From assembly GCA_021817785.1 (NCBI GenBank), contig JAKAFY010000004.1:6826-70825 (forward strand): 64,000 nucleotides of DNA. Direction: 5' to 3'. Within the stretch, counting starts at the first letter, position 1. Each line of letters opens with the position of its first letter. Source of the stretch: a bacterium (GTDB taxonomy: Bacteria > Patescibacteriota > Microgenomatia > UBA10105 > UBA927). The position numbers and the translations under genes were made by a program. Under the pieces are notes generated by a model. The model searched no databases. It saw only the letters and a program-made list of their open reading frames with translations, and was not told the DNA's origin. Positions 38,484 through 54,510 of the stretch are shown here, in pieces.

Positions 38484-38515
38484 GTGGTGGTACCCTACAA
38501 AAGGGCGGGCAACGG

Positions 38516-40411: not shown

Positions 40412-40485
40412 ACCGGGTTGTGAAATTTCGATCTATTATTACGCGCTCGTTTCTCGAGATTCTTTTCCTGCAATATATATCCGAA

Positions 40486-40522
40486 TAAAAAAATCCGATA
40501 CGAGAATGTATGCGCGTATCGA
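40486..40522 (-). terminator. Intrinsic terminator downstream of the 40575-42671 gene
   Basis: Minus strand reads tcgatacg-cgcatacattctc-gtatcgga then tttttttatt. Confidence 0.5.
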
Positions 40523-40574
40523 AATTCTACTACCCGGCATGTGAGAAATTATATCACGGACTGCAGCGCATGGC

Positions 40575-42671
40575 TTACGGCTGTTTCAGCCCTCCCCACT
40601 CGACGAGCGTGAATCCGTTCCGTACGAGTCTGTCCAGTGATTGCGGGGATAACGGGTGCGCAGGCTTTGCCATAAGCGGCGTATAATCCAAAAATATCCG
40701 GAAAACCGTATCGGGGACCGGCGACACCGTCATCGGAAAAAGCGTATTTACGTCATGCGTCTGCAAAAAGCTCACGCGGTAATACGGCGCATGTTTCGAC
40801 AGCATATCCGCCAGCCAATAGTCGGCAAAATCCCTCTTTTCCGTAGCATTGAGCCCCATATCCGTTAACGTGGTATCCAAAAATCCGCCCAACGCGCTCC
40901 GGTCGACGATCCATCCGCCGGAGATCGCAGGATACGCGGACGAAACCGACCCAGCCCAGAAAAGATACGGGTAGGTATTTGTCGCGCATGCGTGTGCTGC
41001 ATATTCCGATCCCCTTTTGGACGCATCGATCGCCGCGCAGTCGGTCAGAGACGGCAGAAGATTCGTGAGTGTCCCGTCCGGATGAGCCAATACCTGCCAG
41101 GAGCCGGCATACGTTGGGATATCCGTCGTCATCCGGATCGGTGTCCGAAACGTTACCGTAACGGGCGTCGGTGTTGTGGGATAGAGGTAGATCACGGGCT
41201 TACCGCACCCGCCCGGCAGTTTTATATCGTATTCGCCGAGAGCCACCCACCGCCCCCAATAATCTTTGAGAAACAAAAGCGGCGTTTTTTGTACGTATTC
41301 ATCCAGCGTGGGCTTTGGTATGCCCTTGTTCGCATCATCCCACCCCATGCCCTGGGCACCGAAGTAATCGAGTTTATTGTTGTACGCCAGGGTGAGTAAC
41401 GGATGCTTCGTATCTTTGAGCCGGTACAACGGTATGGCACCGACAGTTCCGATTTGTTCCAAGTCGGTGTCGCTTACGTTGACGATAGTTGTCGTCAGAG
41501 ACATCGCGCACGCCCCGGGGATCGCGGTCTGATAATCGGTATACAACGCGACGGATGTTGGCGTTGTTATCTCTTTGCCCAATACGCCGAGACTCGGCGG
41601 GTACACATAGTCAGGGCTTTTCGGATATGTGGAAATTTCCTTGTTCTGATATTTTTTGACGTCCTCCTGATATTGTTTTTCGGCCGCGGTATATACACGC
41701 TGACTGGCAGTATACGTGCGGATATGTTCTTTTGTAGTCATCGCGTACCGCATGGGCAGCCCTGCGGAATCTACGGCAACCACCTCGGATGTCGCCAACA
41801 GATAGCGTTGCCGCAATTGTGCTTTTGTCTTTTCTTCGGGAGTGAGTTTGCTTACGTCTGCGTTATTTGCCGCGATAGGTTGTGCGTATAGACTAACATT
41901 CGGTATGGGAGAGGTAAGTTTCGTATCAGCGGAGCCGGGAGATTCCAGTACCAGGTCATATACATCGTTTCCCTGGGCATCTTTTGCATTCGTGCGTACG
42001 GTGTTGATCGGATACGACTCCTGGTACAGTGCAAAATGTGCATCCAGATCCAGTTCTTTTGGTTGTTCCGTATCAAACACGGCAGTCGATGTCACTTTGG
42101 CCTTGTCCAGATACATATACGGATTTTGCCAGTCGGTTACCGGATAGTTCGTCGTATTCCCGTCCGGATCATCCAATACAAACTGCAGAAAATTTTTGGT
42201 GGCCAACGTAAATGAAAGCGGCCCGCCGGGTCCGAACGCGGGGCGGATAGCGATGATTCTCGTGTATCCGGTCAGCGCGCCGCGCGTAAATGTGCCGGCA
42301 CTGTAGTATGAAAAATCATTCTGTACGTGATTTAACTCGTCGTCTTGCGTCAGGGTAAAGAGCTGCAGGTTCTGATGCAAACGCGTGAGTGTACCGGAAA
42401 ATAACGGAGCAACGGCAGTGGTAGCAGAAGTCACGGAAGACGTGCCGGGCAACGGACGTGACCCGGGCAGAACCGATGATATGCCGCGCACCCCGAGGAC
42501 ATACGCACCCATGCCGCATGCTGCCAACAACGCGATGACCCCGATCACGGCAAATATGCGCTCTGCTCTCAATGAGTTCGGAAGAGGAGCTGGAGCAGGC
42601 GGTTTTGCAGTCTCATCCGATGGTGTCTTCGATGTGTTCTGTGAGGGTATGTTTTTTGCATTGGCATCCAT
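40575..42671 (-). CDS. Large membrane-anchored extracellular hypothetical protein
   Basis: 698 aa. N-terminal low-complexity region then a TM helix (IFAVIGVIALLAACGMGAYVLGV). No recognisable domain. Confidence 0.55.
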   Translation of the reverse strand: MDANAKNIPSQNTSKTPSDETAKPPAPAPLPNSLRAERIFAVIGVIALLAACGMGAYVLGVRGISSVLPGSRPLPGTSSVTSATTAVAPLFSGTLTRLHQNLQLFTLTQDDELNHVQNDFSYYSAGTFTRGALTGYTRIIAIRPAFGPGGPLSFTLATKNFLQFVLDDPDGNTTNYPVTDWQNPYMYLDKAKVTSTAVFDTEQPKELDLDAHFALYQESYPINTVRTNAKDAQGNDVYDLVLESPGSADTKLTSPIPNVSLYAQPIAANNADVSKLTPEEKTKAQLRQRYLLATSEVVAVDSAGLPMRYAMTTKEHIRTYTASQRVYTAAEKQYQEDVKKYQNKEISTYPKSPDYVYPPSLGVLGKEITTPTSVALYTDYQTAIPGACAMSLTTTIVNVSDTDLEQIGTVGAIPLYRLKDTKHPLLTLAYNNKLDYFGAQGMGWDDANKGIPKPTLDEYVQKTPLLFLKDYWGRWVALGEYDIKLPGGCGKPVIYLYPTTPTPVTVTFRTPIRMTTDIPTYAGSWQVLAHPDGTLTNLLPSLTDCAAIDASKRGSEYAAHACATNTYPYLFWAGSVSSAYPAISGGWIVDRSALGGFLDTTLTDMGLNATEKRDFADYWLADMLSKHAPYYRVSFLQTHDVNTLFPMTVSPVPDTVFRIFLDYTPLMAKPAHPLSPQSLDRLVRNGFTLVEWGGLKQP

Positions 42672-42780
42672 ACGTTCTTAGTATACGTCATACACCAACA
42701 TTATTTTATGTACGATACAATACAATATCATCACCTTCATTGACCGCGAGATATTTTTGCCCCTATACTGAAACTACTTC

Positions 42781-43581
42781 ATGAAATCATCTGCCGCCAA
42801 ATTACTGCTTCTTATCGCACTCATCATATTCCCGCTTCTTGTATGGGCCATTCTGTCCGGCCCGTCGCAGGATACGCGAAGCCGGGCCACGGACACGACG
42901 GTGACGGAAACGCCGTCCAGTACTGCCACCCCCACGTCCACTCCGTCTGCGACGCTTACACCCACCGTTACTCCCTCAGTCACCCCTACTCCGACCAACA
43001 GCCCGCCGCTGTGTCTGGGACTTTCGGCCAATCCGGGAGCAGGACCCAAACCGCTTACGGTCCATTTTGCGTGCGCGGGATATGATGCCAATAACGACAT
43101 TACCGCCGCTGAATTCGGATTCGGTGCCGGCCAAAAACAACTCGTGGAAAGCACCTCGGTCGGGCAATATGGCTCTGTCACCACGTCATATACCTATACC
43201 ACTCCGGGCACCTACAACGTGACCTGTCACGTGCGGGACAACAACAACACATGGTCCGATTATCCGTCGTATTGTACCTATTCTGTTGTCGTGTCAGACA
43301 ACGCGCTTACGCCGACGCCGTTTCGGACGCCGATGCCGACACGGGTGATGGCGGTGGCACCCGACAACGGTCCCATTATCTATAGCGGGACCATTCCCAC
43401 CGTTAGAGAGACGCCGTCCGTGACCCCTACTCCGGTGGAAAAAATTACACTTCCCACGCCGACTCCCGCGCCGTCCCTGTGGACCAACGACAAAATCAGA
43501 CAGCTCTTTATCATGCTGGTCGTCAGCGGCATCACCATCATCGTGGCCCTTTCGCTCCACGCTTTCTTCGACAGGCGATGA
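42781..43581 (+). CDS. Surface protein with PT-rich linkers, a PKD domain and a C-terminal TM anchor
   Basis: Signal anchor. PLTVHFACAGYDANNDI...YTYTTPGTYNVTCHVRDNNNTWSD is a PKD-domain pattern. C-terminal TM LFIMLVVSGITIIVALSL. Confidence 0.7.
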   Translation: MKSSAAKLLLLIALIIFPLLVWAILSGPSQDTRSRATDTTVTETPSSTATPTSTPSATLTPTVTPSVTPTPTNSPPLCLGLSANPGAGPKPLTVHFACAGYDANNDITAAEFGFGAGQKQLVESTSVGQYGSVTTSYTYTTPGTYNVTCHVRDNNNTWSDYPSYCTYSVVVSDNALTPTPFRTPMPTRVMAVAPDNGPIIYSGTIPTVRETPSVTPTPVEKITLPTPTPAPSLWTNDKIRQLFIMLVVSGITIIVALSLHAFFDRR

Positions 43582-43607
43582 ATTACGCTGTACAATAGAG
43601 AGTATAG

Positions 43608-43952
43608 ATGCAGATTGTTAAACAAAAGCAAACCCACTGGGTCGAGACTGCCCCAACTGCGACCGTCGAGGAGTACCTCATGCGAGAGCGCACGATCGGC
43701 GGAGCGACGTCTATTATCTCCGGCCGGTACCCGGTCAAAGGCTATGCCGTCAATACGGTTTCCAGGGAATTGGTTCTGGTTCTAAGCGGCGACGGATACA
43801 TAGGGACACCGCGGAAAAAAACGCCGATTGTTATCGGCGACTGCATCCTCATCAAACCCAAAGAAAAATATTATTGGGACGGACACATGGCGCTTTTTAT
43901 GGTTTGCACCCCCGTATGGAAATCCTCGCAGCACACCATTGTTCCGAAATAA
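43608..43952 (+). CDS. Cupin-domain protein
   Basis: Small beta-barrel pattern (GYAVNTVSRELVLVLSGDGYIG...GDCILIKPKEKYYW). Confidence 0.55.
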   Translation: MQIVKQKQTHWVETAPTATVEEYLMRERTIGGATSIISGRYPVKGYAVNTVSRELVLVLSGDGYIGTPRKKTPIVIGDCILIKPKEKYYWDGHMALFMVCTPVWKSSQHTIVPK

Positions 43953-43956
43953 TCTT

Positions 43957-44928
43957 ATGGATACGCTTCTTACCCGCATCGACAGTGCCATGACCCTTTC
44001 CAGCGTATTGGAATCGGCAGCAGGTTCATTCGGTCTCGGGAACATCCAGTCGTCCGCGACGATACTCACCGGATATCAGGATTACAATGTAGAGCTTACG
44101 ACGTCGACCGGCCGCTACGTGGTCAAAATATTTGCAAAGGATAAAACAATCCGGCGGATAGACGACGTGTTATGGGCATACGAAGCGTTTGCCAAAAAGC
44201 ACGTTCCCGTGCCAACTCTGCGGCACACGACCGACGGACAAACCCGTATGGAACTTGCCGGAGTCGAACACCCGTCGTATCTTTGCGTGTTTGACTTTTT
44301 CCCCGGAAAACCGCTGACGCGCGTTCCCGTCACCGATACTGATTTGGTCACCCTGACCAACGCCATGTCCGCTATCCACAAAACCCAGCACACCATCCAG
44401 CCGTACTACGATACTCTGGCGATTGCCAACGTACAGAAAGAATTCCAGCTGAAAAAAGACGCGCTGTCCGCGGATGAACTGTCGCTTATTACGCCGGTGA
44501 TTGCGAAATTCAGCCGCATCAAACTTCCTGCGTTTCCCCAAAGCATTATCCACGGCACATTTGAAAAAGAAAACGTGCTGAAAAATCCCGCAGGCGACCT
44601 GTGCCTTCTGGATTTCGGATGCATGGACTACAACGCATCGGTTCTGGATATCGCAACGTGTATTGCCAACGTTACCCTGTATCTGGACAAAGTGCGGCGC
44701 GACCAGGTCATCCGCGTCATGCTGGATACGTACCACGCATCGCGTCCGCTTACACCCGAGGAACGCGCAGCCCTTCCGACGCTTATCCGCTGCCAGTACG
44801 CCGCCTATGCGATCGGTATGAGCCACCACATGCGCATAGACCATGACATGAGCAAGCAAACCCAGACATGGCTGGATCGCGGATGGGACGGACTCAAGGC
44901 GTATGCCAAGGTAACCCGGATTGTGTAA
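43957..44928 (+). CDS. Phosphotransferase (APH/choline-kinase-like) family protein
   Basis: Brenner-like motif IIHGTFEKENVL and DLCLLDFG. Start at the internal Met MDTLL; the upstream part of the ORF-track ORF overlaps the cupin gene. Confidence 0.6.
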   Translation: MDTLLTRIDSAMTLSSVLESAAGSFGLGNIQSSATILTGYQDYNVELTTSTGRYVVKIFAKDKTIRRIDDVLWAYEAFAKKHVPVPTLRHTTDGQTRMELAGVEHPSYLCVFDFFPGKPLTRVPVTDTDLVTLTNAMSAIHKTQHTIQPYYDTLAIANVQKEFQLKKDALSADELSLITPVIAKFSRIKLPAFPQSIIHGTFEKENVLKNPAGDLCLLDFGCMDYNASVLDIATCIANVTLYLDKVRRDQVIRVMLDTYHASRPLTPEERAALPTLIRCQYAAYAIGMSHHMRIDHDMSKQTQTWLDRGWDGLKAYAKVTRIV

Positions 44929-44943
44929 CACACAAACGACGCT

Positions 44944-45795
44944 ATGTTGCCGTATCTTTTCGGAATTATCACATATATAGGGTGGGGGTCGGGCGACGTG
45001 TTCGGCACGTTTGCCACACGGAAAATCGGCCCATATGTCACTACATTTTGGGCATTTGCGTTTGCGGCACTCCTGGGATTACTCTATGTTCCGTTTGCGT
45101 TCGCCGATCTTTCCAGGATCACCCCGATATTCCTCGCATGCAACATACTATTAGGCATCATCTATATAGCAGGCAACCTTACATTCAACGAAGCGCTCCG
45201 TTTATCCAGCGCGCCGATCGTGGGGACGATCGGAGGGTCATTTGCAGCCCTTACCGTACTCCTGTCATTTCTCTTTCTCGGAGAGCATATTTCGCTTATC
45301 CGTACGCTGCTTATTCTTTTTGTATTCCTCGGCGTGTTTATTACCAGCACCGCACACAATCAGACGAAAGAAAAAGGATTTACCCGGGGAATACTCTTGG
45401 CACTGGTCAGTTTCTTCGTATGGGGCATCTATTTTACGTTCAATAAAGTACTGATGAGCAGGATGGGCTGGTTCTGGCCAAACTACATTCCCATTCTGTT
45501 ATTTCCGATTATTGCAATATATATGAAATGGAAACGCATTCCGTTTATCCTGCCCGACCACACCATAACTCCGTTTCTATTTCTCAATGCGCTCGCGCTC
45601 CGGGGCGGGGATTTTGCATTCAATATCGGCGCAAGTTTGGGTCTTACGGCAACTATTGCTCCTATGGGCGGCGCATATCCCACACTATTTGCCGTACTTT
45701 CCCACTTCATCTTTCACGATCCGCTGAACAAAAAACAGGTTGCGGGCATTGCCATTGCATTGACGGGGTTAGTTGCGTTAGGATTTGTAGCGTAG
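44944..45795 (+). CDS. EamA/DMT-family transporter
   Basis: 10 TM helices. EamA-like halves. Confidence 0.75.
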   Translation: MLPYLFGIITYIGWGSGDVFGTFATRKIGPYVTTFWAFAFAALLGLLYVPFAFADLSRITPIFLACNILLGIIYIAGNLTFNEALRLSSAPIVGTIGGSFAALTVLLSFLFLGEHISLIRTLLILFVFLGVFITSTAHNQTKEKGFTRGILLALVSFFVWGIYFTFNKVLMSRMGWFWPNYIPILLFPIIAIYMKWKRIPFILPDHTITPFLFLNALALRGGDFAFNIGASLGLTATIAPMGGAYPTLFAVLSHFIFHDPLNKKQVAGIAIALTGLVALGFVA

Positions 45796-45799
45796 ACCT

Positions 45800-46126
45800 A
45801 TGACCACGATGTTACTCGGCATTATCTCCTGTCAGGACCGCACAGAGGCGGATATGATCGGCCGGCATGTCTTAAAGCACAAACTGGCCGCCTGCATGCA
45901 GATTATCGACAACGTCGAGTCATCTTTTCTCTGGCCGCCCGGCACGTCGACCATCGATTATGCCAACGAAGCGCTGCTTTTGGTCAAAACCCTGGAATCC
46001 AAATGGGCAGCACTGGAAAAAGAAGTCATCAAAAAGCATTCTTACAAAAACCCCGAAATCGTCGCCCTGCCCGTGTCCCACGTAAGCCGCACATACCTCG
46101 ACTGGCTCACAAACGAATTAGCCTGA
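45800..46126 (+). CDS. cutA: Divalent-cation tolerance protein CutA
   Basis: CutA1 pattern (SSFLWPPGTSTIDYANEALLLVKT...KHSYKNPEIVALPV...YLDWL). Confidence 0.8.
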   Translation: MTTMLLGIISCQDRTEADMIGRHVLKHKLAACMQIIDNVESSFLWPPGTSTIDYANEALLLVKTLESKWAALEKEVIKKHSYKNPEIVALPVSHVSRTYLDWLTNELA

Positions 46127-46146
46127 TGTAGGGTATACTTACCCCC

Positions 46147-46995
46147 ATGCCGTGGTATATCTTTGCGCTTGCCAGTGCCATCTTTTTTGCATCCCAGGAA
46201 CTCCTCATGCGCGTGCTGGCCATAAAAACAAACTCGCCGAGGATTTTTTCCGTTATGTTTAACCTCTGGGGCGCGTTGTTTGCGCTTATCGCATTCGTCC
46301 TCCAGGGCGGATCATTTATGGGTTTGCGCGCGTTACCGTTATCCCAATATATGCTTATTGCGACATCGGGTGTTGCGTACGGACTGTACGAGCGGTACCA
46401 GTTTTCCGCACGCAAAGATATCGACGCATCCTCTTTTTCCGTCATTTCCAGTATGACCACCGTCATGGCGTTTATCGGCGCTATTTTCTTTTTACGCGAA
46501 TCGCTTACGATAGCCAAGGCGTTGGGTACAGCGCTCATCGTGTGTGCCTCTCTTCTTTTGGTGTACAAAAATCCCAAACTCAAACTCAATCGCGGGATGT
46601 GGTATGCGTTCCTGTGTGTGATATTTCTAGGAATTACCGGAGTGGTCGATAAACCCGCATCCGTGCATCTTCAACCGGCGCTTTTTAGCTTCCTCGTATG
46701 GTTTTTTCCCATCGTCATTATCGCGTTTCCCGGCGTTACCGCATCAGACGTTCGGAAGGAACTGCATATCGGCGGATGGAAAGCCGTACTCGCAGCCATA
46801 CTCAATGTTGTGGGTTACATCCTTTATATCCGGGCGTTTGCGTTAGCCGATGCATCGCGCGTTATTCCCGTCAGCGCGACGAGCGGTATACTTGTGGTCC
46901 TCGGTGGCATACTGCTTCTGGGAGAGCATGACCATATGAAACGAAAACTCATCGCTGGCGCCCTCGCCTTTGCCGGAGTATATTTTTTGAAATAA
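46147..46995 (+). CDS. EamA/DMT-family transporter
   Basis: 10 TM helices. EamA-like halves. Confidence 0.75.
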   Translation: MPWYIFALASAIFFASQELLMRVLAIKTNSPRIFSVMFNLWGALFALIAFVLQGGSFMGLRALPLSQYMLIATSGVAYGLYERYQFSARKDIDASSFSVISSMTTVMAFIGAIFFLRESLTIAKALGTALIVCASLLLVYKNPKLKLNRGMWYAFLCVIFLGITGVVDKPASVHLQPALFSFLVWFFPIVIIAFPGVTASDVRKELHIGGWKAVLAAILNVVGYILYIRAFALADASRVIPVSATSGILVVLGGILLLGEHDHMKRKLIAGALAFAGVYFLK

Positions 46996-47020
46996 CGGTA
47001 ATTTCATCTATAATCAACGT

Positions 47021-47557
47021 ATGCAAAAACAGGCGCTTATCCTCCACGCATGGCAAAACGGCCCGGACGCGCACTGGTACCCATGGCTGAAAAAGGAACT
47101 GGAATCGCGGGGGTATACCGTATATCTGCCGGAAATTCCGACGATGAATTCCAACGCTCCGGATCTTGATACGCAACTGCGTTTTATCGAAACATCCGTT
47201 CCCCTTACCGGCGACTGTGTCATTATCGGCCACAGTCTTGGCGCACTCCTCGCCATGCGGCTTGCGGAAAAACATACATGTACAAAAATGTTTCTTGTCG
47301 CCGGCTGGGACTTTAACGATCTTACCGTCGAACATCGGTCGTTTTGGCAAACTCCCATGGATCATGAAGCAATACAAAAGAACGTCAAAGATATATACGT
47401 CATCTCCTCAGACAACGACCCGTATATCACCGCTGTCACCGCAGAAGACATGAGCAAGCGCCTGAACGGGAAATTCATTCTTATCAAACACGCCGGCCAC
47501 TTCACGGACAAATTCGGGGTTACAAAAATTCCGGAATTACTTATGCATCTCGAATAG
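47021..47557 (+). CDS. Alpha/beta serine hydrolase (YdeN/RBBP9-like)
   Basis: LILHAWQNGPDAHWYPWL and the nucleophile elbow IIGHSLGA. About 178 aa. Confidence 0.7.
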   Translation: MQKQALILHAWQNGPDAHWYPWLKKELESRGYTVYLPEIPTMNSNAPDLDTQLRFIETSVPLTGDCVIIGHSLGALLAMRLAEKHTCTKMFLVAGWDFNDLTVEHRSFWQTPMDHEAIQKNVKDIYVISSDNDPYITAVTAEDMSKRLNGKFILIKHAGHFTDKFGVTKIPELLMHLE

Positions 47558-48725
47558 TGTTGTAAAGGTATAACGCGGCAGGAATGACGGTTACAAGTCC
47601 AATCCAGAAAAATAACCCCAGCGTTTTTCCGGAACCAATCGTATCCTGCAATCTACCGACAAAAAGTCCGGCAATACTCACGAGGAGATTGTAAAACAAC
47701 GCAATAGCCGAAAGGGCTGTGGCCCGATATCGAGAATCAATCTGGTCATTCTGCAATCGGGCCAAAATCGGCTTACGGAACCCATCTGAAAATTTCCGCA
47801 TATACACAGACGTAATCGCGCCCGCCCGACCCTCTAGGTATGATAATCCAGATCCTACAGTTTGCATGACTGCCAAAAATATGGGCATCTGTCGTTCTGA
47901 CAGTTTATTTGTCACAACCGGTATAAGTCTGGTTCCGACCGCGCGTATGAGATATGTTCCCGCTACTAAAAATCCCATACTTGCTGCGCCAAATCCGCCC
48001 TCTACCAGTCGTGGCTCGTACAAATACCAAAGTCCCACATACCCGATAAACTCCACTAAAATACTGAAAAGCGATATTGCGCCGATAAGCTGGTTACGGA
48101 ATATATGGATTGTGCCCTCGACATTCAATCGCATGTACCGTGCAAGCGTAACCTTCGTTGAAGTAACTGTGGGTTCATCAAAATAAAATACACCGATCAA
48201 TGCCCCCACAGAGGCAACCGCGGACGCCAGATATGGCAAATGAATATTAAACCGGTATAGGTATCCCCCGATAATACTTGCAATCGCCATACCTATAGTA
48301 CACCAAAAAAATGTGTTCGCCTCGGTCTTTTGATACCACTCCTTCTCTTTCCCGTTCTCTTTCAGGGAGTCGTAAAGAAGCGCGGAAAGCGCGCCGGACT
48401 CAAATGACCAGTTCGCCTGATACAGAATATTTGCGGCCAAAAACAACCAAAAATTATTGGCTACGCTATACAGCAAAAATCCCATAACCCCCAGCACGCG
48501 ACCGATAAGAATAGTGCGTTTTCGCCCGATCAGATCAGCGAGTGCTCCTGTCGGAAGCTGAAGGAGTATCCCCACCGCAAAACCGATTCCCATGATGAGC
48601 GTTATCTCGGTAAACGACAGATATGTTCTCCAAATAAACACCCAAACGCCTATGGCGACATAAAACCATTGAAAAACGGAATCTATGGTAAACACGCGGA
48701 TATTTCTTCTCCAGTTAGTTTTCAT
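47541..48725 (-). CDS. MFS transporter
   Basis: 12 predicted TM helices. MFS-type DLIGRKRTILIG motif. Confidence 0.8.
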   Translation of the reverse strand: MKTNWRRNIRVFTIDSVFQWFYVAIGVWVFIWRTYLSFTEITLIMGIGFAVGILLQLPTGALADLIGRKRTILIGRVLGVMGFLLYSVANNFWLFLAANILYQANWSFESGALSALLYDSLKENGKEKEWYQKTEANTFFWCTIGMAIASIIGGYLYRFNIHLPYLASAVASVGALIGVFYFDEPTVTSTKVTLARYMRLNVEGTIHIFRNQLIGAISLFSILVEFIGYVGLWYLYEPRLVEGGFGAASMGFLVAGTYLIRAVGTRLIPVVTNKLSERQMPIFLAVMQTVGSGLSYLEGRAGAITSVYMRKFSDGFRKPILARLQNDQIDSRYRATALSAIALFYNLLVSIAGLFVGRLQDTIGSGKTLGLFFWIGLVTVIPAALYLYNTIRDA

Positions 48726-48728
48726 ACG

Positions 48729-49439
48729 TTATTTTTTTGTACCGACTAATAGTACCATCCCGGTATACCCATCCCGCAAAGGTTCTTTTGCCCTTGGAAT
48801 ATGATACATCGTTACTGAATCACAGTGCGGCGTAAAAACACACTCAAGTAATTTCTTATGTACCGGATATGCGGGGAAATGAATTGGTCCGACGGAATAT
48901 CCGCAAGAATTTTCCATGAACGCTGCCACGAACATTCCTTTCGGCTTTGCAGAACGGATAAAATTATCACACGCAACCTCAAATTCAAGCGCGCTTGACG
49001 TGATAGATTCGGCACAAAAAAACATCATCACTACGTCATACGCTTTGTCCGGTCGTTTCAGTATTGATCCTTTTCGGATAACTACGTTCTGCCTTAGCCT
49101 TGCTATTGAACGTTTCTTATATCGGATATTTAATGATGACATATACGCACTAAAGGCATTCCAATACACGCTCGGCTTATGTAATTGACGGGTTAAGAAA
49201 TCAATATTTCTGGAACTTATTTCCAGGCAATCTATTGTCGATGCATATGGAGATATTGCCATCAACGGATAAAGGTTCGGTCCGGTACCTATATCCAACA
49301 CACGACATCCTCCGGATAATTTTTTTTCAAAATACGGCACTAATATATCTATAATCCGGCGATCTTCATCGTGTAAGTCAACATAATTGTCTCGCACATA
49401 AATTTCCGGATCAAATAGTTCCCACAAATGGTTCGTCAT
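48729..49439 (-). CDS. NNMT/PNMT/TEMT-family SAM-dependent methyltransferase
   Basis: FDPEIYVRDNY and the SAM motif VLDIGTGPNLYPLMAIS. Start taken at the internal Met; the 5' part of the ORF-track ORF overlaps the divergent TrmB gene. Confidence 0.65.
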   Translation of the reverse strand: MTNHLWELFDPEIYVRDNYVDLHDEDRRIIDILVPYFEKKLSGGCRVLDIGTGPNLYPLMAISPYASTIDCLEISSRNIDFLTRQLHKPSVYWNAFSAYMSSLNIRYKKRSIARLRQNVVIRKGSILKRPDKAYDVVMMFFCAESITSSALEFEVACDNFIRSAKPKGMFVAAFMENSCGYSVGPIHFPAYPVHKKLLECVFTPHCDSVTMYHIPRAKEPLRDGYTGMVLLVGTKK

Positions 49440-49515
49440 AATGAGGCAAAGTGTACAAAACAACGTGTCCGTAGTATACTTGTCGTCGCTTTCGTCCGAC
49501 AAAAGCGACATTATT

Positions 49516-50304
49516 ATGAATACTACATCACTGGAAGAACATTTGGCGCAATTTGGCCTTTCCAAAGAAGAGACCGCAATATACCTGGCTCTTTCGGGTA
49601 AACCCGCCCATACCGCCCTTGAGCTATCCAGACTACTCCGGGTTCCCCGTACCACTATCTATGATCATGTGACGAGCCTCATCGAAAAAGGACTCGTTGA
49701 GAGGATTGTGAAGTACAAAAGTCAACAGTTCCAAGCATATCCCATAGACATACTTTCGCATACTATTGATCAGGAAAAATCTCATCTCGACAGACTTACC
49801 ATATCTTTCGAATATCTCAAGAACCATATCCATGAAAGCAGCGCTATACTATCAACATCAACTCAGGTTCGATATTACCATGGTGCCACTGGTGTCCGGC
49901 AGATGATGTGGAATACGCTTTCCGCCGTGAAAGAAAATATCGGGTATTCCGTCATGGGCCGACGGGAAATCGTAGGAAAAACGTTTCTCAAACGGTACCT
50001 CGAAGAAATGGACCGCCGACACATTCTGGATCGCGTCATTATTAATCCGAAAAAAGAAACGCTGCTCTACGCCACGGACGGCATACTATCAGTGCGGACA
50101 AAAAAGGTGGCACTGGAAAAAATTCGTGTGATACCGGCGGCTCAGTTGCACATAACCGGGGATACGACGATATATAACAATATATTTGCCGTCATGTATT
50201 GGCAGCACGATGAAATCGTCGGTGTCGAAATCGAGAATCCGGAACTTGTTGCCATGCAGAAATCTATCTTTGAAATGCTCTGGAAGCTTTCGAAACCGTT
50301 TTAA
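49516..50304 (+). CDS. TrmB-family transcriptional regulator
   Basis: N-terminal winged HTH FGLSKEETAIYLALSGKPAHTALELSRLLRVPRTTIYDHVTSLIEKGLV. C-terminal TrmB-like domain. Confidence 0.75.
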   Translation: MNTTSLEEHLAQFGLSKEETAIYLALSGKPAHTALELSRLLRVPRTTIYDHVTSLIEKGLVERIVKYKSQQFQAYPIDILSHTIDQEKSHLDRLTISFEYLKNHIHESSAILSTSTQVRYYHGATGVRQMMWNTLSAVKENIGYSVMGRREIVGKTFLKRYLEEMDRRHILDRVIINPKKETLLYATDGILSVRTKKVALEKIRVIPAAQLHITGDTTIYNNIFAVMYWQHDEIVGVEIENPELVAMQKSIFEMLWKLSKPF

Positions 50305-50361
50305 ATACCGTAATATACTGTTGTAGATATCAGGTGCGGGGCATACTATGTTTACACATTC

Positions 50362-51249
50362 ATGAATTCCAAAACGCTCGCCATTACCGCACTTATCATC
50401 ACTGCCGCCGGATACGCATTGCTCTCCGTCGGCTCCCGGTTGCTCGCCGAAGGGTTTTTACCGATGACCCAGGTGTATATGAGGGTGACACTTGCGACCA
50501 TCGCGCTTATCATATTATTTCGTAAAAATCTGCGATGGAGAAAGCTCATATCCATGCCGCCACGTGATGCATGGGTACTTCTTTCTATGGGTACCATTGG
50601 CTTTTCCGTCGCCGTGTACTTTGTGACATTAGGCGCGCTGAATGCAAAACTGGTAAATGTATCTATTATTTTCGCATCGGTTCCGTTCTTTTCATACCTT
50701 TACGCGTTCCTGTTCCTCCACAAACCGTTAAACGCCAAACTTATCGGCCTTCTTATATTGTCTCTCGTGGGGATAGCCATTGTTGCGACCAAATCGTTCA
50801 TTCCTCATATTGCAACGTTTGGTACCGGAGAATTTTTTACTCTTGTCGCCACAGCCACTATGGCATGGTTTTACGTGGGCCGTAAACTACTAACAAAACA
50901 CCTCAACAACAATGAAATTACCGTCGTCGTTATGGCCATTGCATCCGTTTCCGCATTCGGATTCTCACTTGTTCGCGGTGAAACATTTTCGCCCTCTGCG
51001 TTTTCCAATATACATGTACTTGTAGGACTTATGATAGGCATCGCCATGAACGCGCTCGTTAACCCCATAGAAATATTCGCATTCGATCATTTGGACGCAG
51101 TCACCGGCAGTCAGATTTTACTTTTGGAAACCGTGTTCTCGCTTCTTCTCGGGTTCCTCCTGTATCATGAATATATATCCTTCCCCGAATTTGTCGGGGG
51201 GGTCATTGTCATCGGAAGCGTCTATCTGGCAAACAAAATGCCTGGCTAA
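50362..51249 (+). CDS. EamA/DMT-family transporter
   Basis: 10 TM helices. EamA-like halves. Confidence 0.75.
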   Translation: MNSKTLAITALIITAAGYALLSVGSRLLAEGFLPMTQVYMRVTLATIALIILFRKNLRWRKLISMPPRDAWVLLSMGTIGFSVAVYFVTLGALNAKLVNVSIIFASVPFFSYLYAFLFLHKPLNAKLIGLLILSLVGIAIVATKSFIPHIATFGTGEFFTLVATATMAWFYVGRKLLTKHLNNNEITVVVMAIASVSAFGFSLVRGETFSPSAFSNIHVLVGLMIGIAMNALVNPIEIFAFDHLDAVTGSQILLLETVFSLLLGFLLYHEYISFPEFVGGVIVIGSVYLANKMPG

Positions 51250-51269
51250 AAAAACGCTGCTTCTCCTCA

Positions 51270-51620
51270 ACTCCTCTATTCCCCTGTTCTTCAATTGCTC
51301 AATTCATCTATTCCTCTGTTCATCATTTTCTTATGTTCTCAATGTCCCAATTTCTCGATACCCCAATTTCTCAATTTATCGATTGCTCGATTTACCAAAT
51401 TCTTGATTTCTAGATTACTCAACTTCCCGATTTCTCAAGTTCTCAACTTCTCGAGTTTCCATTTCCCCAATTTCTCAAGCCCCCGATGTTTCAAGTTCCC
51501 CATTTCTTCAGTTCACAAGTTTTAAGTTTTCAATTTCTTCAGTTCTCAATTTTTAAGTTCCCAATTTCTTCAGTTCTCATTTTTTTCAGTTCCCAATTTC
51601 CCGATTTCTCAACATCCTTC
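51270..51620. repeat. Degenerate AT-rich tandem-repeat array built on cccaatttctcaa / gttctcaa units
   Basis: About 15 imperfect copies with a sub-period near 10 nt and clearer 30-31 nt units near the 3' end, e.g. caatttcttcagttctcaatttttaagttcc repeated twice. Confidence 0.8.
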
Positions 51621-51664
51621 ACCACGCATCCATTAATGTTATTCACTTAGTATTCCCATACCTT

Positions 51665-51698
51665 CTTTGTTACCATGTTTTGAAACATAGTAACAAAG
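51665..51698. repeat. Palindrome ctttgttaccatgttttgaaacatagtaacaaag (15 of 17 arm matches) 5 nt after the yerC-like stop
   Basis: Near-copy of the perfect palindrome at 52157-52182. The flanking about 10 nt is also similar. Confidence 0.8.
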
Positions 51699-51702
51699 AA
51701 TA

Positions 51703-52146
51703 TTAGAACGCTTTCTGACTTGCCATCTTTGCTTCCCAACGGCGCTTTCTCCAGCTTCTCCAGTCCCGTCCCACAGGAGGAAACATATCTGCAAGCGCAT
51801 CATCAATTTTTTGGATAAATGCTTTTAATTCCTCTTTACGGAGCAGTGACCCGACCACCGCCAAATAGCCGCCCTTGCCCGACTGCAGCATTACACTCAC
51901 TTTGCTCACCGTTCCCAGGCTTACTTTCAGCCAGCGCGATATCGTGCGTTGGTCGTAATGTTTCAGGAGAAGCAGAGCGATAGAAAGTCGCTTTGCGATC
52001 ATCAGCCGCTCCGTCGGGGAAAGTAGATCTCCTAATAACCGGCTCACCGTATCCCGGCTCTTTGCCGCAGCGATGCTTTCCATGAGGACTTCATATACAC
52101 GCATTTCCACTTCCTTACGGAGAGGAATCCTAGACACCTGCGTCAT
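51703..52146 (-). CDS. TrpR-related YerC/YecD-family DNA-binding protein
   Basis: LLSPTERLMIAKRLSIALLLLKHYDQRTISRWLKVSLGTVSKVSVML matches the Trp-repressor-like YerC/YecD fold. Confidence 0.7.
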   Translation of the reverse strand: MTQVSRIPLRKEVEMRVYEVLMESIAAAKSRDTVSRLLGDLLSPTERLMIAKRLSIALLLLKHYDQRTISRWLKVSLGTVSKVSVMLQSGKGGYLAVVGSLLRKEELKAFIQKIDDALADMFPPVGRDWRSWRKRRWEAKMASQKAF

Positions 52147-52156
52147 ACATTCCTAC

Positions 52157-52182
52157 GTTACCATGTTTTAAAACATGGTAAC
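52157..52182. promoter_or_regulatory. Perfect 26-bp palindrome GTTACCATGTTTTAAAACATGGTAAC 11 nt upstream of the yerC-like start; putative operator
   Basis: The 13-nt arms are exact reverse complements. Lies in the divergent intergenic region with the downstream EamA gene. Confidence 0.6.
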
Positions 52183-52254
52183 AAGAGATGTGGATATCCA
52201 ATGCAGTCATTTTCATATAAAATAAACGTGCAGGCGGCATCATTCATTTGCATC

Positions 52255-53112
52255 ATGAAATTATCCAAAGGATTTATCTATACGTTTCTGACATCCCTTT
52301 GCTGGGCTATCAGCATCGTGCTGGCACGCATCGTACTAAGCCACGGCGAAAACCCGTATAACCTGGCGTTCTGGACGTCCATTCTTGCCGCTCCGTACTG
52401 GCTATATCTTTTTTCCACGGAGCGCAAAAACGTACAACGGCTTACGGCCAAAGACATCGCGATCCTTTTCGGCATGGCGGCCATCAGTTCCGTCGGAGTT
52501 ACGTTCGTGGAAGCGTTCGCCCTCACCTACAGTCCTGCGGTAAATTATTCATTTCTCATACGCATGGTTTCCGTTTTCGTTATCATCTTTGCCGCAATAT
52601 TTCTGCATGAAAAAATCACGAGAAAAAAAGTTATTCTTTTAGCGACCATCCTTGCCGGTGCCTATTTGCTGACGACCAACGGACGTGAGCTGCACCTGAC
52701 CACCGGCGACATGTTCACGCTTCTGGAGGCCATGCTTCTGGCCATCGGAAACGGCGTCCTCATCAAACTTGCTACCAACAGGATGACGCCGAATCTCGGC
52801 TCATCTGCCAGAGTGCTTATCGCGCTTATCCCGATGATACTTATCGCCATGACACATACCTCGCTTCATGTACCCCGGGAATTTTTGCTGGTTCTCGGCA
52901 TCACCGTATGCGATTTTGCGCTCACCTATTTTCAGTTCCGTGCGTTTAGACATGCGACCGCGTCGTTTGTGACGATGATCATGTCGTTTACTCCGGTACT
53001 TGTCGCCATCATGGCCGTACCGGTGCTCAGGGAGACATTAAGTCCCATCCAGCTTGCCGGGGGCGTTCTCATTATTTCAGCAGGCGTTCTTGTGGAAAAA
53101 CTGAAAGTGTAG
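52255..53112 (+). CDS. EamA/DMT-family transporter
   Basis: Start at MKLSKGF. 10 TM helices. Confidence 0.75.
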   Translation: MKLSKGFIYTFLTSLCWAISIVLARIVLSHGENPYNLAFWTSILAAPYWLYLFSTERKNVQRLTAKDIAILFGMAAISSVGVTFVEAFALTYSPAVNYSFLIRMVSVFVIIFAAIFLHEKITRKKVILLATILAGAYLLTTNGRELHLTTGDMFTLLEAMLLAIGNGVLIKLATNRMTPNLGSSARVLIALIPMILIAMTHTSLHVPREFLLVLGITVCDFALTYFQFRAFRHATASFVTMIMSFTPVLVAIMAVPVLRETLSPIQLAGGVLIISAGVLVEKLKV

Positions 53113-53121
53113 CATATACCT

Positions 53122-54510
53122 ATGAAGCGTCGTTTCATCGATTATCTTGCCTACGCCTTTATCGCCCTCTACACCCTGGCCGCCATACTCGTTTCCGTGA
53201 ACCGCTTCTGGCAATACGAGGTGTTTTACTATGACTTCGGCATATTTGATTCTGCGATATGGAGTGTCGCGCACTTCCGACCACCTGTCATTGATCACTT
53301 CGTCATCGGCGGCAAATGGATATTTGCCGATCATTTCAGCCCCAGTATGTTTTTGCTTTCCCCCATCTACTGGTTTACTGCTCGTCCGGAAGCGCTCCTT
53401 ATCGCACAGGCGGTAGCCGTTGGACTTAGTGCGCTCGTGTTGTATTTGTTAGCTAAACACGTTCTTAAATCGTCATTTATCTCTCTTGCTATCTTGCTTT
53501 CTTACTTATTATTTATCGGCACCCAAAACGCGCTGATTGCTGATATCCACGAAGTCACGTTTATGATGCTGCCGCTCTCTCTCGTTTTCTATGCGATCGT
53601 CACCAAACGGCCGAAACTTTTTTGGGTCATGTTTTTCATCACGTTGGGATTCAAGGAAAGTGCCGCGCTGCTCGGCGTGGGAATCGCGTTCCTTATCGTG
53701 TTGTATAACAGACGCTGGTGGAAAACAGCTGTTCTGGTCGGGGTCATATCGGTTGTCTGGGGTATACTTACGACCCAGGTTATTATTCCGTATTTTTTCG
53801 GGAACAGATATTTCTACACCCCCACCTTCGATCATAATCCATGGGTAGTCTTCTGGTCGTTGTTTGACGATCCGGTCAAACGGAAGACGTTACTTCTTTC
53901 GTTTACCAGTTTCGGATTTCTGCCCGCACTCTATCTCCCAGCCTGGCCGCTTATGCTGCAGGATATCGCCGCACGCTTTATGCAGAAAGACTTCACGCTC
54001 CGATGGGGACTGGGTCTGCATTACAGTGCGCAACTTTCCGTCATCATGGCTTTTTCCTCTATTATGGCGGCTGATTTTCTGAAGAAACATATACCCCGGC
54101 TCGGCATCATTGCGGGAGCGACACTCCTTACCCTGCTATCCGTGTACCTGCACCAGTTCAAACTGCACGGGCCGTTGGGTCTTTCATACAACCGCGCATT
54201 TTACGCGAATACAAAAAATTTTGCGTTCTTAAACACCCTCATCGCGCGTATTCCGAAGGGCACTACCGTCATGACGCAAAACGACATCGCGCCGCACATG
54301 ATCCACACCCACAAGGTATATCTTCTTCGTGCGGTATACGATTCGTTCTTACCGGAGTACTTTGTGCTGGATCTTAGAGCCGGACAAAATTTCAATGACT
54401 TCTTTGGCGCGGATATAGAAGCGCTCAAACTTACGCTGCCGCATGACACGCGCTACCGGCTTATTTACAGCACGAAAGAACAGTTTATCTACCAGCGGAA
54501 ATCCGATTAA
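53122..54510 (+). CDS. DUF2079-family integral membrane protein
   Basis: YDFGIFDSAIWS near the N-terminus. About 12 TM helices plus a C-terminal soluble domain. About 462 aa. Confidence 0.6.
   Translation: MKRRFIDYLAYAFIALYTLAAILVSVNRFWQYEVFYYDFGIFDSAIWSVAHFRPPVIDHFVIGGKWIFADHFSPSMFLLSPIYWFTARPEALLIAQAVAVGLSALVLYLLAKHVLKSSFISLAILLSYLLFIGTQNALIADIHEVTFMMLPLSLVFYAIVTKRPKLFWVMFFITLGFKESAALLGVGIAFLIVLYNRRWWKTAVLVGVISVVWGILTTQVIIPYFFGNRYFYTPTFDHNPWVVFWSLFDDPVKRKTLLLSFTSFGFLPALYLPAWPLMLQDIAARFMQKDFTLRWGLGLHYSAQLSVIMAFSSIMAADFLKKHIPRLGIIAGATLLTLLSVYLHQFKLHGPLGLSYNRAFYANTKNFAFLNTLIARIPKGTTVMTQNDIAPHMIHTHKVYLLRAVYDSFLPEYFVLDLRAGQNFNDFFGADIEALKLTLPHDTRYRLIYSTKEQFIYQRKSD

Follow-up and report, generated by a model that had tools for sequence, protein, structure and literature searches.

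The window analyzed here, a stretch of 64,000 nucleotides from a contig of an ultra-small bacterium (Patescibacteriota), contains a short gene on the reverse strand (positions 51,703–52,146, 444 bp), which encodes a TrpR/HisR-like regulator of 147 aa, as assigned from its open reading frame (ORF) and the Pfam family PF01371. On its upstream side, the gene is divergent from an operon of an EamA and a DUF2079 gene (52,201–54,510, forward strand, Pfam assignments). As the preliminary description of this DNA had stated, the divergent EamA gene shares the upstream region with the regulator; its ORF begins at 52,201, and its true start is likely the ATG at 52,255, judging from a 286-aa ortholog at the related locus L009. 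On its downstream side, the regulator converges with a second EamA gene (50,362–51,249), and a tandem array with an 8-bp period occupies the space between them (51,258–51,612). The regulator is the only gene that is inverted relative to both of its neighbors, and it lies exactly between two copies of a palindrome, which are predicted operators without strand assignment.

The upstream copy has a perfect core of 13+13 nt (GTTACCATGTTTTAAAACATGGTAAC, 26 bp, 52,157–52,182), in agreement with the preliminary description, and spans 30 bp (52,155–52,184) when a TT/AA extension is included. It lies in the intergenic region common to the regulator and the divergent EamA–DUF2079 operon, 10 nt rather than the previously given 11 nt from the regulator ATG. 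The downstream copy has the core GTTACCATGTTTTGAAACATAGTAAC (51,669–51,694), which differs from the upstream copy by two mismatches, and sits inside a longer hairpin (51,663–51,700) with 18-nt arms that are 94% complementary. It is located between the convergent ends of the regulator and the EamA gene at 50,362–51,249, and the tandem array begins about 50 nt past it. The earlier count of 15 matches in 17 arm positions was correct; the distance from the regulator stop codon, given as 5 nt, is 4 nt for the interval then noted and 2 nt for the extended hairpin. The centers of the two palindromes are 488 bp apart. Read by halves, the window site is GTTACCATGTTTT followed by AAAACATGGTAAC, and it consists of four pentamers in an 8-bp register, TGTTA-nnn-TGTTT in one arm and AAACA-nnn-TAACA in the other. 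Only these two copies occur in the 64 kb at up to three mismatches (shuffles: 0 in 100), with no further or degenerate sites in the window even at 9 of 26 mismatches. The additional similarity of about 10 nt claimed for the flanks is present but weak: the two flanks share a direct repeat of 28 nt and an inverted match of 45 nt (78%), which is mostly the palindrome itself. Scanning the whole window against Rfam returned zero RNA families. Perfect palindromes of 26–34 bp exceed typical operators in both length and perfection.

The regulator protein belongs to the Pfam family Trp_repressor (PF01371; residues 19–98, 51.2 bits at a cut-off of 27, E 1.3e-13). According to its AF2 monomer model (pLDDT 82), it has the TrpR fold, which is all-helical with a helix–turn–helix, and is nearest to HisR/YerC-type structures. 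The top Foldseek matches of the model were 3G1C, 3KOR, 1TRR, 1TRO, and 3FRW (target-normalized TM-scores 0.70–0.82, probability 1.00), and the best PDB matches by both sequence and structure were 3FRW, 3KOR, 3G1C, and E. coli TrpR. The model contains two predicted C-terminal helices beyond the TrpR fold (residues 105–121 and 129–144), and neither Pfam nor the structure matches indicated a catalytic domain. HisR and TrpR are described as proteins of <100 aa (PMC9413887); at 147 aa, the regulator lies outside the short class of HisR proteins (<~100–105 aa, without C-terminal extension). It also scores below the curated cut-offs of the TrpR equivalog family TIGR01321 (26.1 versus 67.25 bits) and of the YerC/YecD (HisR) family TIGR02531 (23.5 versus 42.2 bits), so that of the earlier label "TrpR-like yerC/yecD" the first part holds and the second is imprecise. 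Similarly, the window site does not match the 20-bp HisR operator cacTTTA-n6-TAAAgtg. A search for related proteins yielded 898 cluster representatives at E ≤ 1e-10, which are mostly 145–150 aa long. The best reading is that the regulator represents a new subfamily of TrpR/HisR-type repressors that are long (~147 aa) and found throughout the Patescibacteria. In the published literature, we found work on HisR (YerC), and no study of the Patescibacteria subfamily or of an operator downstream of the gene.

Comparison across the family revealed that the two-palindrome arrangement is widely conserved. The preliminary description had named conservation of the motif in relatives with the gene as a test, and 57 of 70 long homologs, from many Patescibacteria lineages, carry one palindrome at both gene ends. 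For this comparison, upstream and downstream flanks of 150 nt were compared for a common palindrome-bearing segment, with controls taken 600 nt away; the segments scored 13–32, compared with about 7–11 for the controls. The palindrome sequence varies among clades and the upstream and downstream copies remain matched. In the upstream as well as in the downstream alignment, the palindrome is the sole conserved block, and the flanks are otherwise unalignable. At an orthologous locus (80% protein identity), 20 kb of sequence hold just the two flanking sites. Upstream-specific and downstream-specific flank variants are each conserved between genomes, which suggests long independent descent of the two copies and argues against recent duplication or homogenization. 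Center-to-center distances range from 418 to 573 bp (n = 39 loci); these values and the 488 bp of the window fall within the 100–3,000 bp that separate paired operators in looping systems. The inter-site distance shows no helical phasing (Rayleigh test, p > 0.28 for all periods between 9.5 and 12 bp, n = 39), so the spacing is uninformative for looping and lends it no support. The downstream copy is absent from four of four short homologs (104–108 aa, without the C-terminal extension; p = 0.002), and its presence thus correlates with the extension, with few independent lineages behind this short-versus-long contrast. Past the downstream copy, convergent loci contain no consistent small ORFs or common elements.

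The regulator unit lies in blocks of conserved synteny and is passed on vertically, and the divergence of the protein tracks lineages. Its neighbors across loci encode EamA and MFS exporters, Nudix, cupin, APH, and CutA1 proteins; his or trp genes and recombinase genes were both absent from the neighborhoods examined. The gene order is DUF2079–EamA, regulator, EamA in the window and DUF2079, regulator, EamA–EamA at L009, where the DUF2079 gene also points away from the regulator, and a Nudix gene precedes the regulator at L021 and follows it at L015.

The type of palindrome follows the helix–turn–helix sequence of the protein. A KVSLG-TVSKVS helix–turn–helix pairs with a GTTAYC... palindrome, RVTPP-TIAxVS with ACTTWAATGATAT..., and HVSYG-TVNRVG with TGCTACCATGATTC.... 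Where one genome encodes two paralogs, the palindrome that flanks one paralog gene on both sides differs from the palindrome that flanks the other (L026/L037, L007/L081, L046/L048, L036/L058, L034/L071, and L020/L049). Conservation within the sites is block-wise, as expected for protein contacts: TGTTA and TGTTT are kept in each arm around a variable spacer, and the "variable" inner triplet is identical in all four arms within a genome. Levy-type sites are built of analogous blocks (ACT..AAT.ATA). Symmetric double changes distinguish upstream and downstream copies at some loci (e.g., L026 and L029). The length and perfection of the palindromes and these symmetric double changes would also fit selection for a hairpin or cruciform, or quasi-palindrome correction.

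The two copies differ in their relation to promoter elements. On its 5′ side, the upstream site is preceded at a constant distance by a perfect TTGACA at 13 of 50 loci (17 of 50 at ≥5/6 matches), the ATG follows about 32 nt after this −35 element in relatives, and across the family the upstream site stops 0–25 nt short of the ATG. A promoter and terminator scan of window positions 51,200–52,400 called nothing at either palindrome and no sigma-70-like promoter upstream of the regulator. The upstream copy presumably overlaps the core promoter of a leaderless or near-leaderless mRNA, which for the window clade is based on the relatives and a weak TGnTAACGT-like element. The idea that the downstream copy is itself a promoter was rejected, as a −35 hexamer was found at 0 of 39 downstream copies.

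Since the bracket recurs in most relatives of the gene, the two palindromes are most likely binding sites of the encoded protein and not a mobile element. We consider it likely that the palindromes form an autoregulatory operator pair, bound by the protein encoded between them, with the downstream site as an auxiliary operator. Autoregulation through an operator pair had been one of two suggestions in the preliminary description, and it is strongly supported by comparative sequence evidence, namely the bracket in 57 of 70 homologs, the co-variation with the helix–turn–helix, the differences between paralogs, and the overlap with the predicted promoter. Protein bound to the upstream site would block RNA polymerase at the core promoter, resulting in negative autoregulation, and the same site may also control the divergent EamA–DUF2079 operon. 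For the downstream site, a role as auxiliary operator by looping or roadblocking is probable. One possibility is cooperation with the promoter site across a loop the size of the gene (about 490 bp), for which the extra C-terminal helices, whose presence correlates with that of the downstream copy, might be responsible. Instead of looping or besides it, protein bound to the downstream site might form a roadblock and shield the regulator gene from neighboring transcription. The four pentamers in 8-bp register suggest that each site probably binds two dimers.

Single copies of the palindrome are also present at other places on metagenome contigs; 11 of these sites lie in gaps between convergent genes and a few within genes. 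The metagenome contigs returned include some from Hainich groundwater (Hain-H41/H43/H51). Many of these orphan sites lie 5–30 nt upstream of start codons, and in relatives, EamA, MFS, Nudix, and other genes bear the palindrome. First candidate members of a regulon are EamA/MFS exporters, Nudix, Ham1, a serine hydrolase, and GNAT, and the regulon predicted from the sites consists largely of exporters and housekeeping hydrolases. At L021, four gaps in a row contain the palindrome (S): RmuC–S–EamA–S–Nudix–S–regulator–S–MFS. Units of one or two genes between site pairs are few (L097, L140, L142, and L113), and the notion that a pair of sites encloses every regulated unit was dropped as a general rule, since most orphan sites are single. 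Single sites in convergent gaps and inside genes are not explained by a pure promoter–operator model; some "intragenic" sites are artefacts of run-on ORFs, such as the one at L104, which really lies in the alaS–pheS gap.

Two rival explanations concern the downstream copy. It might be the promoter–operator of the next gene, a neighbor in the regulon, in which case the window copy would be left over from a rearrangement that brought in the convergent EamA gene and the tandem array. The series of sites at L021, the many orphan sites shortly before start codons, and a co-directional downstream gene in about 60% of family loci speak for this explanation. We nevertheless regard it as improbable, as the missing −35 element sets downstream copies apart from upstream ones, and the copy is kept equally in convergent (20 of 25) and co-directional (33 of 41) contexts, 80% each. 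Furthermore, the palindrome stays perfect in the convergent loci L012 and L013 despite flanks that diverge and gain indels, and it hugs the regulator stop (mostly 1–20 nt), while the next start follows at 2–93 nt. Alternatively, the downstream palindrome could function in the transcript, where a 3′ hairpin would terminate transcription or stabilize the mRNA, with the likeness of the palindrome to an operator being secondary. In the window, the sense strand indeed forms a 17-bp stem (−21.4 kcal/mol, z = −7.6), in which the two "mismatches" become G·U pairs in the sense strand only (antisense −15.9), and the place just past the stop codon, often between convergent genes, is that of a terminator. 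Across 52 downstream sites, however, mismatches have no strand bias (11 G·U-compatible, 8 A·C, 20 transversions), so that the G·U pairs of the window hairpin look incidental. The stem is AT-rich, lacks a following U-tract or T-run, and does not have the features of an intrinsic terminator, with none called at 51,663–51,700; conservation follows sequence blocks instead of pairing. As this explanation also leaves the identity with the promoter operator and the joint change with the protein among paralogs unaccounted for, we assign it a low probability, below that of a promoter–operator of the next gene.

Two further explanations view the palindromes as parts of a DNA rearrangement system. They could be recombination sites for inversion, excision, or shuffling, with gene and sites forming a cassette and the helix–turn–helix protein acting as an accessory factor. 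The shuffled gene order around the sites (the window versus L009, the Nudix gene at L021 versus L015), the isolated inversion of the window regulator exactly between them, and the few other one- or two-gene units between site pairs are compatible with such a role. It appears very unlikely given that no recombinase is encoded nearby, the protein has no catalytic domain, orphan sites are mostly single, and the conserved upstream and downstream variants indicate long independent descent. An empty or excised form, defined as an orphan site whose two neighbors both match those of a gene-linked locus, was not found in the comparison of orphan-site neighbors. The second suggestion of the preliminary description, a MITE-like cassette with the palindromes as terminal inverted repeats, is already contradicted, as is an IS-like element, and we give it hardly any credence. 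The only points in its favor are that the palindromes closely enclose a small gene and that the weak 45-nt inverted match contains them. The unit is single-copy (two sites in 64 kb, two in 20 kb of a relative), encodes a regulator and no transposase, lacks target-site duplications in its flanking sequence, and has conserved flank variants, and each "end" forms a whole palindrome by itself, whereas a terminal inverted repeat would place a single arm there. Presence or absence of gene and palindromes as one unit, which had been put forward as a check in related genomes, did not emerge: no empty site was found, synteny is conserved, and the protein diverges along with its lineages. Like MITE, Correia, and REP-type repeats, the sites are short palindromic DNA that is almost always intergenic; unlike these, they are tied to one protein family, paralog-specific, and block-conserved.

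The proposed operator pair resembles DNA-looping repressors in several respects. In phage lambda, OR and OL bracket the cI–rex transcription unit, and LacI, GalR, and DeoR have auxiliary operators. As with lambda CI and LacI-type repressors, a repressor gene would lie between two operator sets for its own product, and an auxiliary operator hundreds of base pairs away would raise local concentration and cooperativity. In contrast to these systems, the putative loop holds just one 444-bp gene, and a full-strength copy would serve as the auxiliary site, which directly follows the stop codon and is conserved family-wide and not in one operon; looping and oligomers are a proposal here. Repressor roadblocks are known for CodY or CcpA in B. 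subtilis and for LacI on engineered sites. A palindrome-bound protein that stops elongating polymerase would suit the sites in convergent gaps and the few intragenic ones, although in the known cases a roadblock site is not systematically combined with the promoter operator of the regulator itself, and termination is likewise proposed.

More speculatively, the extra C-terminal helices could bridge the two four-block operators, so that the closed loop of about 490 bp would act as both an autorepressor and a two-sided insulator, and orphan palindromes would act as protein-dependent roadblocks or terminators. We consider this extended proposal rather doubtful. If true, two-sided insulation would be useful where a genome has almost no intergenic space, and proteins of the TrpR family would have a regulatory role, as roadblocks or terminators, that has not been described for them. 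How transcription is regulated in the Candidate Phyla Radiation is almost entirely unknown, and here a large family comes with a predicted operator, promoter architecture, and first regulon members, which are open to in vitro tests without culturing. A family-wide second operator after the stop codon is unusual among bacterial autoregulators, and would offer a natural system for asking whether compact genomes insulate genes by repressor loops or roadblocks. Furthermore, same-genome paralogs with different palindromes would constitute a ready set of orthogonal repressor–operator pairs.

The closest known relatives of the regulator are the amino-acid-sensing repressors HisR (B. subtilis YerC) and TrpR of PF01371, which share its fold. 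Both recognize palindromic DNA, and autoregulation has been predicted for about half of the hisR genes (PMC9413887); similarly, the regulator described here has a predicted palindromic operator over its own promoter. The outer heptamers of Levy-type relatives, CACTTTA...TAAAGTG, equal the consensus half-sites of Firmicutes HisR, and the 8-bp register of repeated pentamers recalls the tandem binding of TrpR, as named in the entry title of PDB 1TRR. The regulator differs from both relatives (<~105 aa) in its length and its two additional C-terminal helices. Its operators are longer (26–34 bp, four blocks), with a half-site spacing of n14 in the Levy type compared with n6 in HisR, a conserved second copy follows the stop codon, and the neighboring genes encode exporters and other proteins instead of his or trp functions. 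On the metagenome contig L162, one orphan site adjoins hisI/hisF-like ORFs, which were assigned by eye from their translation.

The regulator gene (51703-52146, minus strand, 147 aa) lies between two copies of one palindrome. The upstream copy is a perfect 13+13 palindrome at 52157-52182 (GTTACCATGTTTTAAAACATGGTAAC on the plus strand) that ends 10 nt from the regulator ATG, and the downstream copy at 51669-51694 (GTTACCATGTTTTGAAACATAGTAAC) is nested in a longer hairpin (51663-51700) that begins 2 nt past the stop. A preliminary description, made from the sequence alone, had reported the perfect upstream palindrome and a near-copy past the stop, and both were borne out; the tight hugging of the gene also stood, with its gaps of 11 and 5 nt corrected to these values. 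Searching the 64-kb window with 3 mismatches allowed returned only these two sites, and none in 100 shuffles; no further site appeared in the window even with 9/26 mismatches. As described before, an EamA gene, here in an EamA-DUF2079 pair, starts divergently on the far side of the upstream copy, and an 8-bp-period tandem array (51258-51612) lies beyond the downstream copy, followed by a convergent EamA gene. The regulator, which lies exactly between the palindromes, is the one gene of the window in opposite orientation to the genes on either side.

Two features of these surroundings deserve mention. The divergent EamA ORF is listed with a start at 52201 (303 aa), and its orthologue in the related locus L009 has 286 aa; an alternative ATG at 52255 (MKLSKGF...) gives 285 aa and is probably the true start, which would put EamA ~72 nt from the upstream palindrome. 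The tandem array (~355 nt; units such as TTCTCAAT, TTCCCAAT, and TTCTCGAT; periods of 16, 24, and 31-32 also reported by TRF) fills the gap from the convergent EamA stop (51249) to the downstream palindrome. It has no Rfam match, contains no long ORF in the orientation of the regulator, and is absent from the matching gap in relatives L006-L013.

The regulator is a relative of HisR and TrpR that stands outside both orthologous groups. It passes the Pfam Trp_repressor cut-off (51.2 bits vs 27), which upholds the TrpR-like part of its earlier label, but fails the NCBIfam models for TrpR (26.1 vs 67.25) and for YerC/YecD (23.5 vs 42.2), so that the yerC/yecD part is imprecise. An AlphaFold model (pLDDT 82) contains the TrpR helices and two additional C-terminal helices (residues 105-121 and 129-144), and the closest solved structures are of the HisR/YerC type (3FRW, 3KOR, 3G1C), followed by E. 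coli TrpR. Together with these failed cut-offs, extra helices, and nearest structures, the size and operator of HisR mark the regulator as a relative rather than a member: HisR, the YerC of B. subtilis, is a histidine-dependent TrpR-family repressor of <100 aa with a 20-bp palindromic operator, cacTTTA-n6-TAAAgtg, and predicted autoregulation in about half of genomes (PMC9413887). At E<=1e-10 the family counts 898 cluster representatives (50% identity), mostly of 145-150 aa, with homologues named from Gottesmanbacteria, Microgenomates, Levybacteria, and others. One 74%-identical orthologue (L008:3001-3441) has an in-frame TAA at codon 3 (ATGACATAAGTA; expected ATGACACAAGTA) but its upstream palindrome is still perfect and its downstream copy still good; the stop reflects either recent pseudogene formation or an error of sequencing.

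Comparison of 150 nt upstream with 150 nt downstream of the gene in 80 genomic loci of homologues (30-81% identity) indicates that the palindromic bracket is a property of the family. A palindrome-bearing segment common to both flanks was found in 57/70 long members (score 13-32; control regions 600 nt off, ~7-11), and hence the motif is neither confined to this DNA nor unconserved in relatives, the outcome that would have counted against the preliminary description. The gap from the upstream copy to the ATG is 0-25 nt, and the downstream copy mostly starts 1-20 nt past the stop. Although palindromes differ between clades (e.g. GTTAYCATGTTTY/RAAACATGRTAAC, TGCTACCATGATTC/GAATCATGGTAGCA, CACTTTAATGATAT/ATATCATTAAAGTG, GGTAAAGTGGTTT/GAACCACTTTACC, and TTGTCATAATGTATT/AATACATTATGACAA), the two copies agree within each genome, and palindrome type goes together with helix-turn-helix sequence. 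Same-genome paralogues have their own, differing palindrome at both ends (L026/L037, L007/L081, L046/L048, L036/L058, L034/L071, L020/L049), which removes the lineage confound and excludes a repeat of generic, genome-wide type. In flank alignments of nine loci with Gottesman-type palindromes, the palindrome is the sole conserved block on either side. A copy-specific variant recurs in both L012 and L013 (GCTATC downstream vs GTTATC upstream), and downstream copies also keep a CTTTG left flank between genomes; such conserved differences indicate that the two copies are old and independently maintained, and argue against recent duplication or homogenisation.

Some loci deserve separate mention. 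The two copies in L026, L029, and L046 differ by a symmetric double change (ACTTTAAT...ATTAAAGT vs ACTTAAAT...ATTTAAGT) that leaves each a perfect palindrome, and L032 has mixed, asymmetric forms; the position may tolerate change, a hairpin or cruciform may be under selection, or template switching may have corrected a quasi-palindrome. Two tandem paralogues on one Levyibacteriota contig (L052:2403-2816 and 3001-3444) have, by the flank comparison, a matched palindrome pair at the second only. L010 was left unscored, as a run of N (3457-3556) begins 14 nt past the regulator stop, at the expected downstream copy.

Within 30 Gottesman-type sites, TGTTA (-14 to -10), TGTT(T) (-6 to -2), and their mirror images are invariant, and the three bases between blocks and the central two vary. 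An arm therefore repeats TGTTW directly, in an 8-bp register, and a whole site has four such blocks. The same plan of outer and inner block is seen in Levy-type sites (ACT-nn-AAT-n-ATA), whose outer heptamer is identical to the HisR half-site but is spaced by n14 instead of n6. Protein contacts are indicated by this block-wise conservation and by the 'variable' triplet, which is identical in all four arms of a genome. With four blocks, a site may be bound by two dimers, a stoichiometry that recalls tandem TrpR binding (PDB 1TRR, by entry title).

The upstream copy is a predicted promoter operator. A perfect TTGACA stands at a fixed offset immediately 5' of it in 13/50 loci (17/50 with >=5/6 matches), with the ATG ~32 nt further on, so that the palindrome would span the spacer, -10, and start region of an mRNA with little or no leader; in the Levy type, TATCAT in the right arm is the predicted -10. 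No such hexamer occurs at downstream copies (0/39), which are not predicted to be promoters. The weakest link concerns the window itself: no separate -35 was seen in its clade and a consensus scan of 51200-52400 called no promoter at either palindrome, but the same arrangement would fit the short distance from palindrome to ATG (5-14 nt) and the presence, at the right arm, of a TGnTAAC(A/G)T element. The upstream copy would act in classical autorepression over the promoter.

The downstream copy appears to belong to the regulator gene and not to the next gene, because it is retained about equally before co-directional (33/41 loci) and convergent (20/25) neighbours, remains a perfect palindrome in convergent contexts where its surroundings diverge and gain indels (L012 vs L013), and lies tight to the regulator stop, whereas its distance to the next start varies over 2-93 nt. 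It may possibly act as an RNA hairpin: in the window its sense-strand RNA forms a 17-bp stem (-21.4 kcal/mol) with both mismatches turned into G.U pairs, and the antisense strand folds more weakly (-15.9 kcal/mol). This pattern is not general, however, as mismatches family-wide comprise 11 G.U-type, 8 A.C-type, and 20 transversions in downstream copies (16, 12, and 33 in upstream copies); the stem in the window lacks a following U-tract, no terminator was called in the scan, and a hairpin role would leave the likeness to the promoter operator unexplained. As a conserved auxiliary operator, the downstream copy would act through a loop, a roadblock, or both. Centre-to-centre distances (418-573 bp, n=39) showed no helical phasing, which at such loop sizes speaks neither for nor against looping. 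The four short homologues (104-108 aa), which do not have the C-terminal helices, all carry the palindrome upstream and none carries it downstream (Fisher p=0.002; few independent lineages), the sole hint that the C-terminal extension may be linked to the second site.

The alternative of a MITE-like cassette, raised in the preliminary description, finds no support as a MITE or IS: the unit occurs in one copy, lacks a transposase, and lies in conserved synteny blocks (RmuC then regulator, 8 loci; FtsK-HTH-YtxH then regulator, 5 loci); no target-site duplication was seen at the window unit, and no empty site was found among sites away from a regulator gene. Recombination at the palindromes is kept as a low-probability possibility given the inverted regulator in the window and the shuffled local gene order (DUF2079-EamA, regulator, EamA in the window; DUF2079, regulator, EamA-EamA in L009; Nudix ahead of the regulator in L021 and behind it in L015). 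Taken together, the best explanation is that both palindromes are predicted operators for their own regulator, which would belong to a new subfamily of long TrpR/HisR-like repressors; the bracket in 57/70 long members, the match of palindrome with helix-turn-helix, and the upstream TTGACA favour the operator pair and autoregulation proposed at the outset. Autoregulation is already known from TrpR/HisR, and auxiliary operators from LacI and lambda CI; the new features are the C-terminal extension, sites of four blocks and 26-34 bp, and, throughout the family, a predicted operator at the stop codon. The system is moderately interesting and lends itself to tests in vitro.

Further sites form a predicted small regulon, with puzzles. 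Scanning JGI metagenome contigs with GTTAYYDTGTTTYRAAACAHRRTAAC gave at least 120 stretches in at least 80 loci; among the matches listed, at least ~25 loci have a regulator gene beside the site(s) and at least ~55 sites are orphans. The latter lie between co-directional (at least 30), convergent (at least 11), or divergent genes (at least 4), within called genes (at least 11), or at contig edges (at least 11). Co-directional orphan sites among these matches typically lie a few nt past one stop and 5-30 nt ahead of the next start. The intragenic status of at least the identical L104 and L119 is a run-on-ORF artefact, and four listed matches are truly intragenic (L124:9995-10020, L136:9290-9315, L105:8316-8341, L159:2045-2070), with perfect or near-perfect 26-bp palindromes within GT4 and GT2 glycosyltransferase and MurD-like ligase genes, which would be unexpected of a promoter operator. 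Mainly because these and the convergent-gap sites misfit a pure promoter-operator role, a roadblock or insulator function was considered.

Recurrent neighbours of the listed orphan sites encode serine hydrolase, Ham1, GNAT, cupin, HAD phosphatase, EamA, MFS, CutA1, and Nudix proteins, families that also group near the regulator, both in the window and in L206, the 20-kb locus of an 80%-identical relative. Small accessory genes by the regulator in the window (~38000-50400, = L001:11800-19400) encode four EamA, MFS, CutA1, APH, serine hydrolase, NNMT/PNMT-type methyltransferase, and TrmB proteins, and a cupin-APH-CutA1 operon runs divergently from the regulator in L206 (7484-9918). The only sites in the window (64 kb) and L206 are the two flanking the regulator, and most listed orphan sites are single. 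Site pairs enclose a few units of one or two genes (L097, L140, L142, and a P-loop kinase adjoining the regulator in L018 = L113), and L021 carries the palindrome (S) in four consecutive gaps, RmuC-(S)-EamA-(S)-Nudix-(S)-regulator-(S)-MFS.
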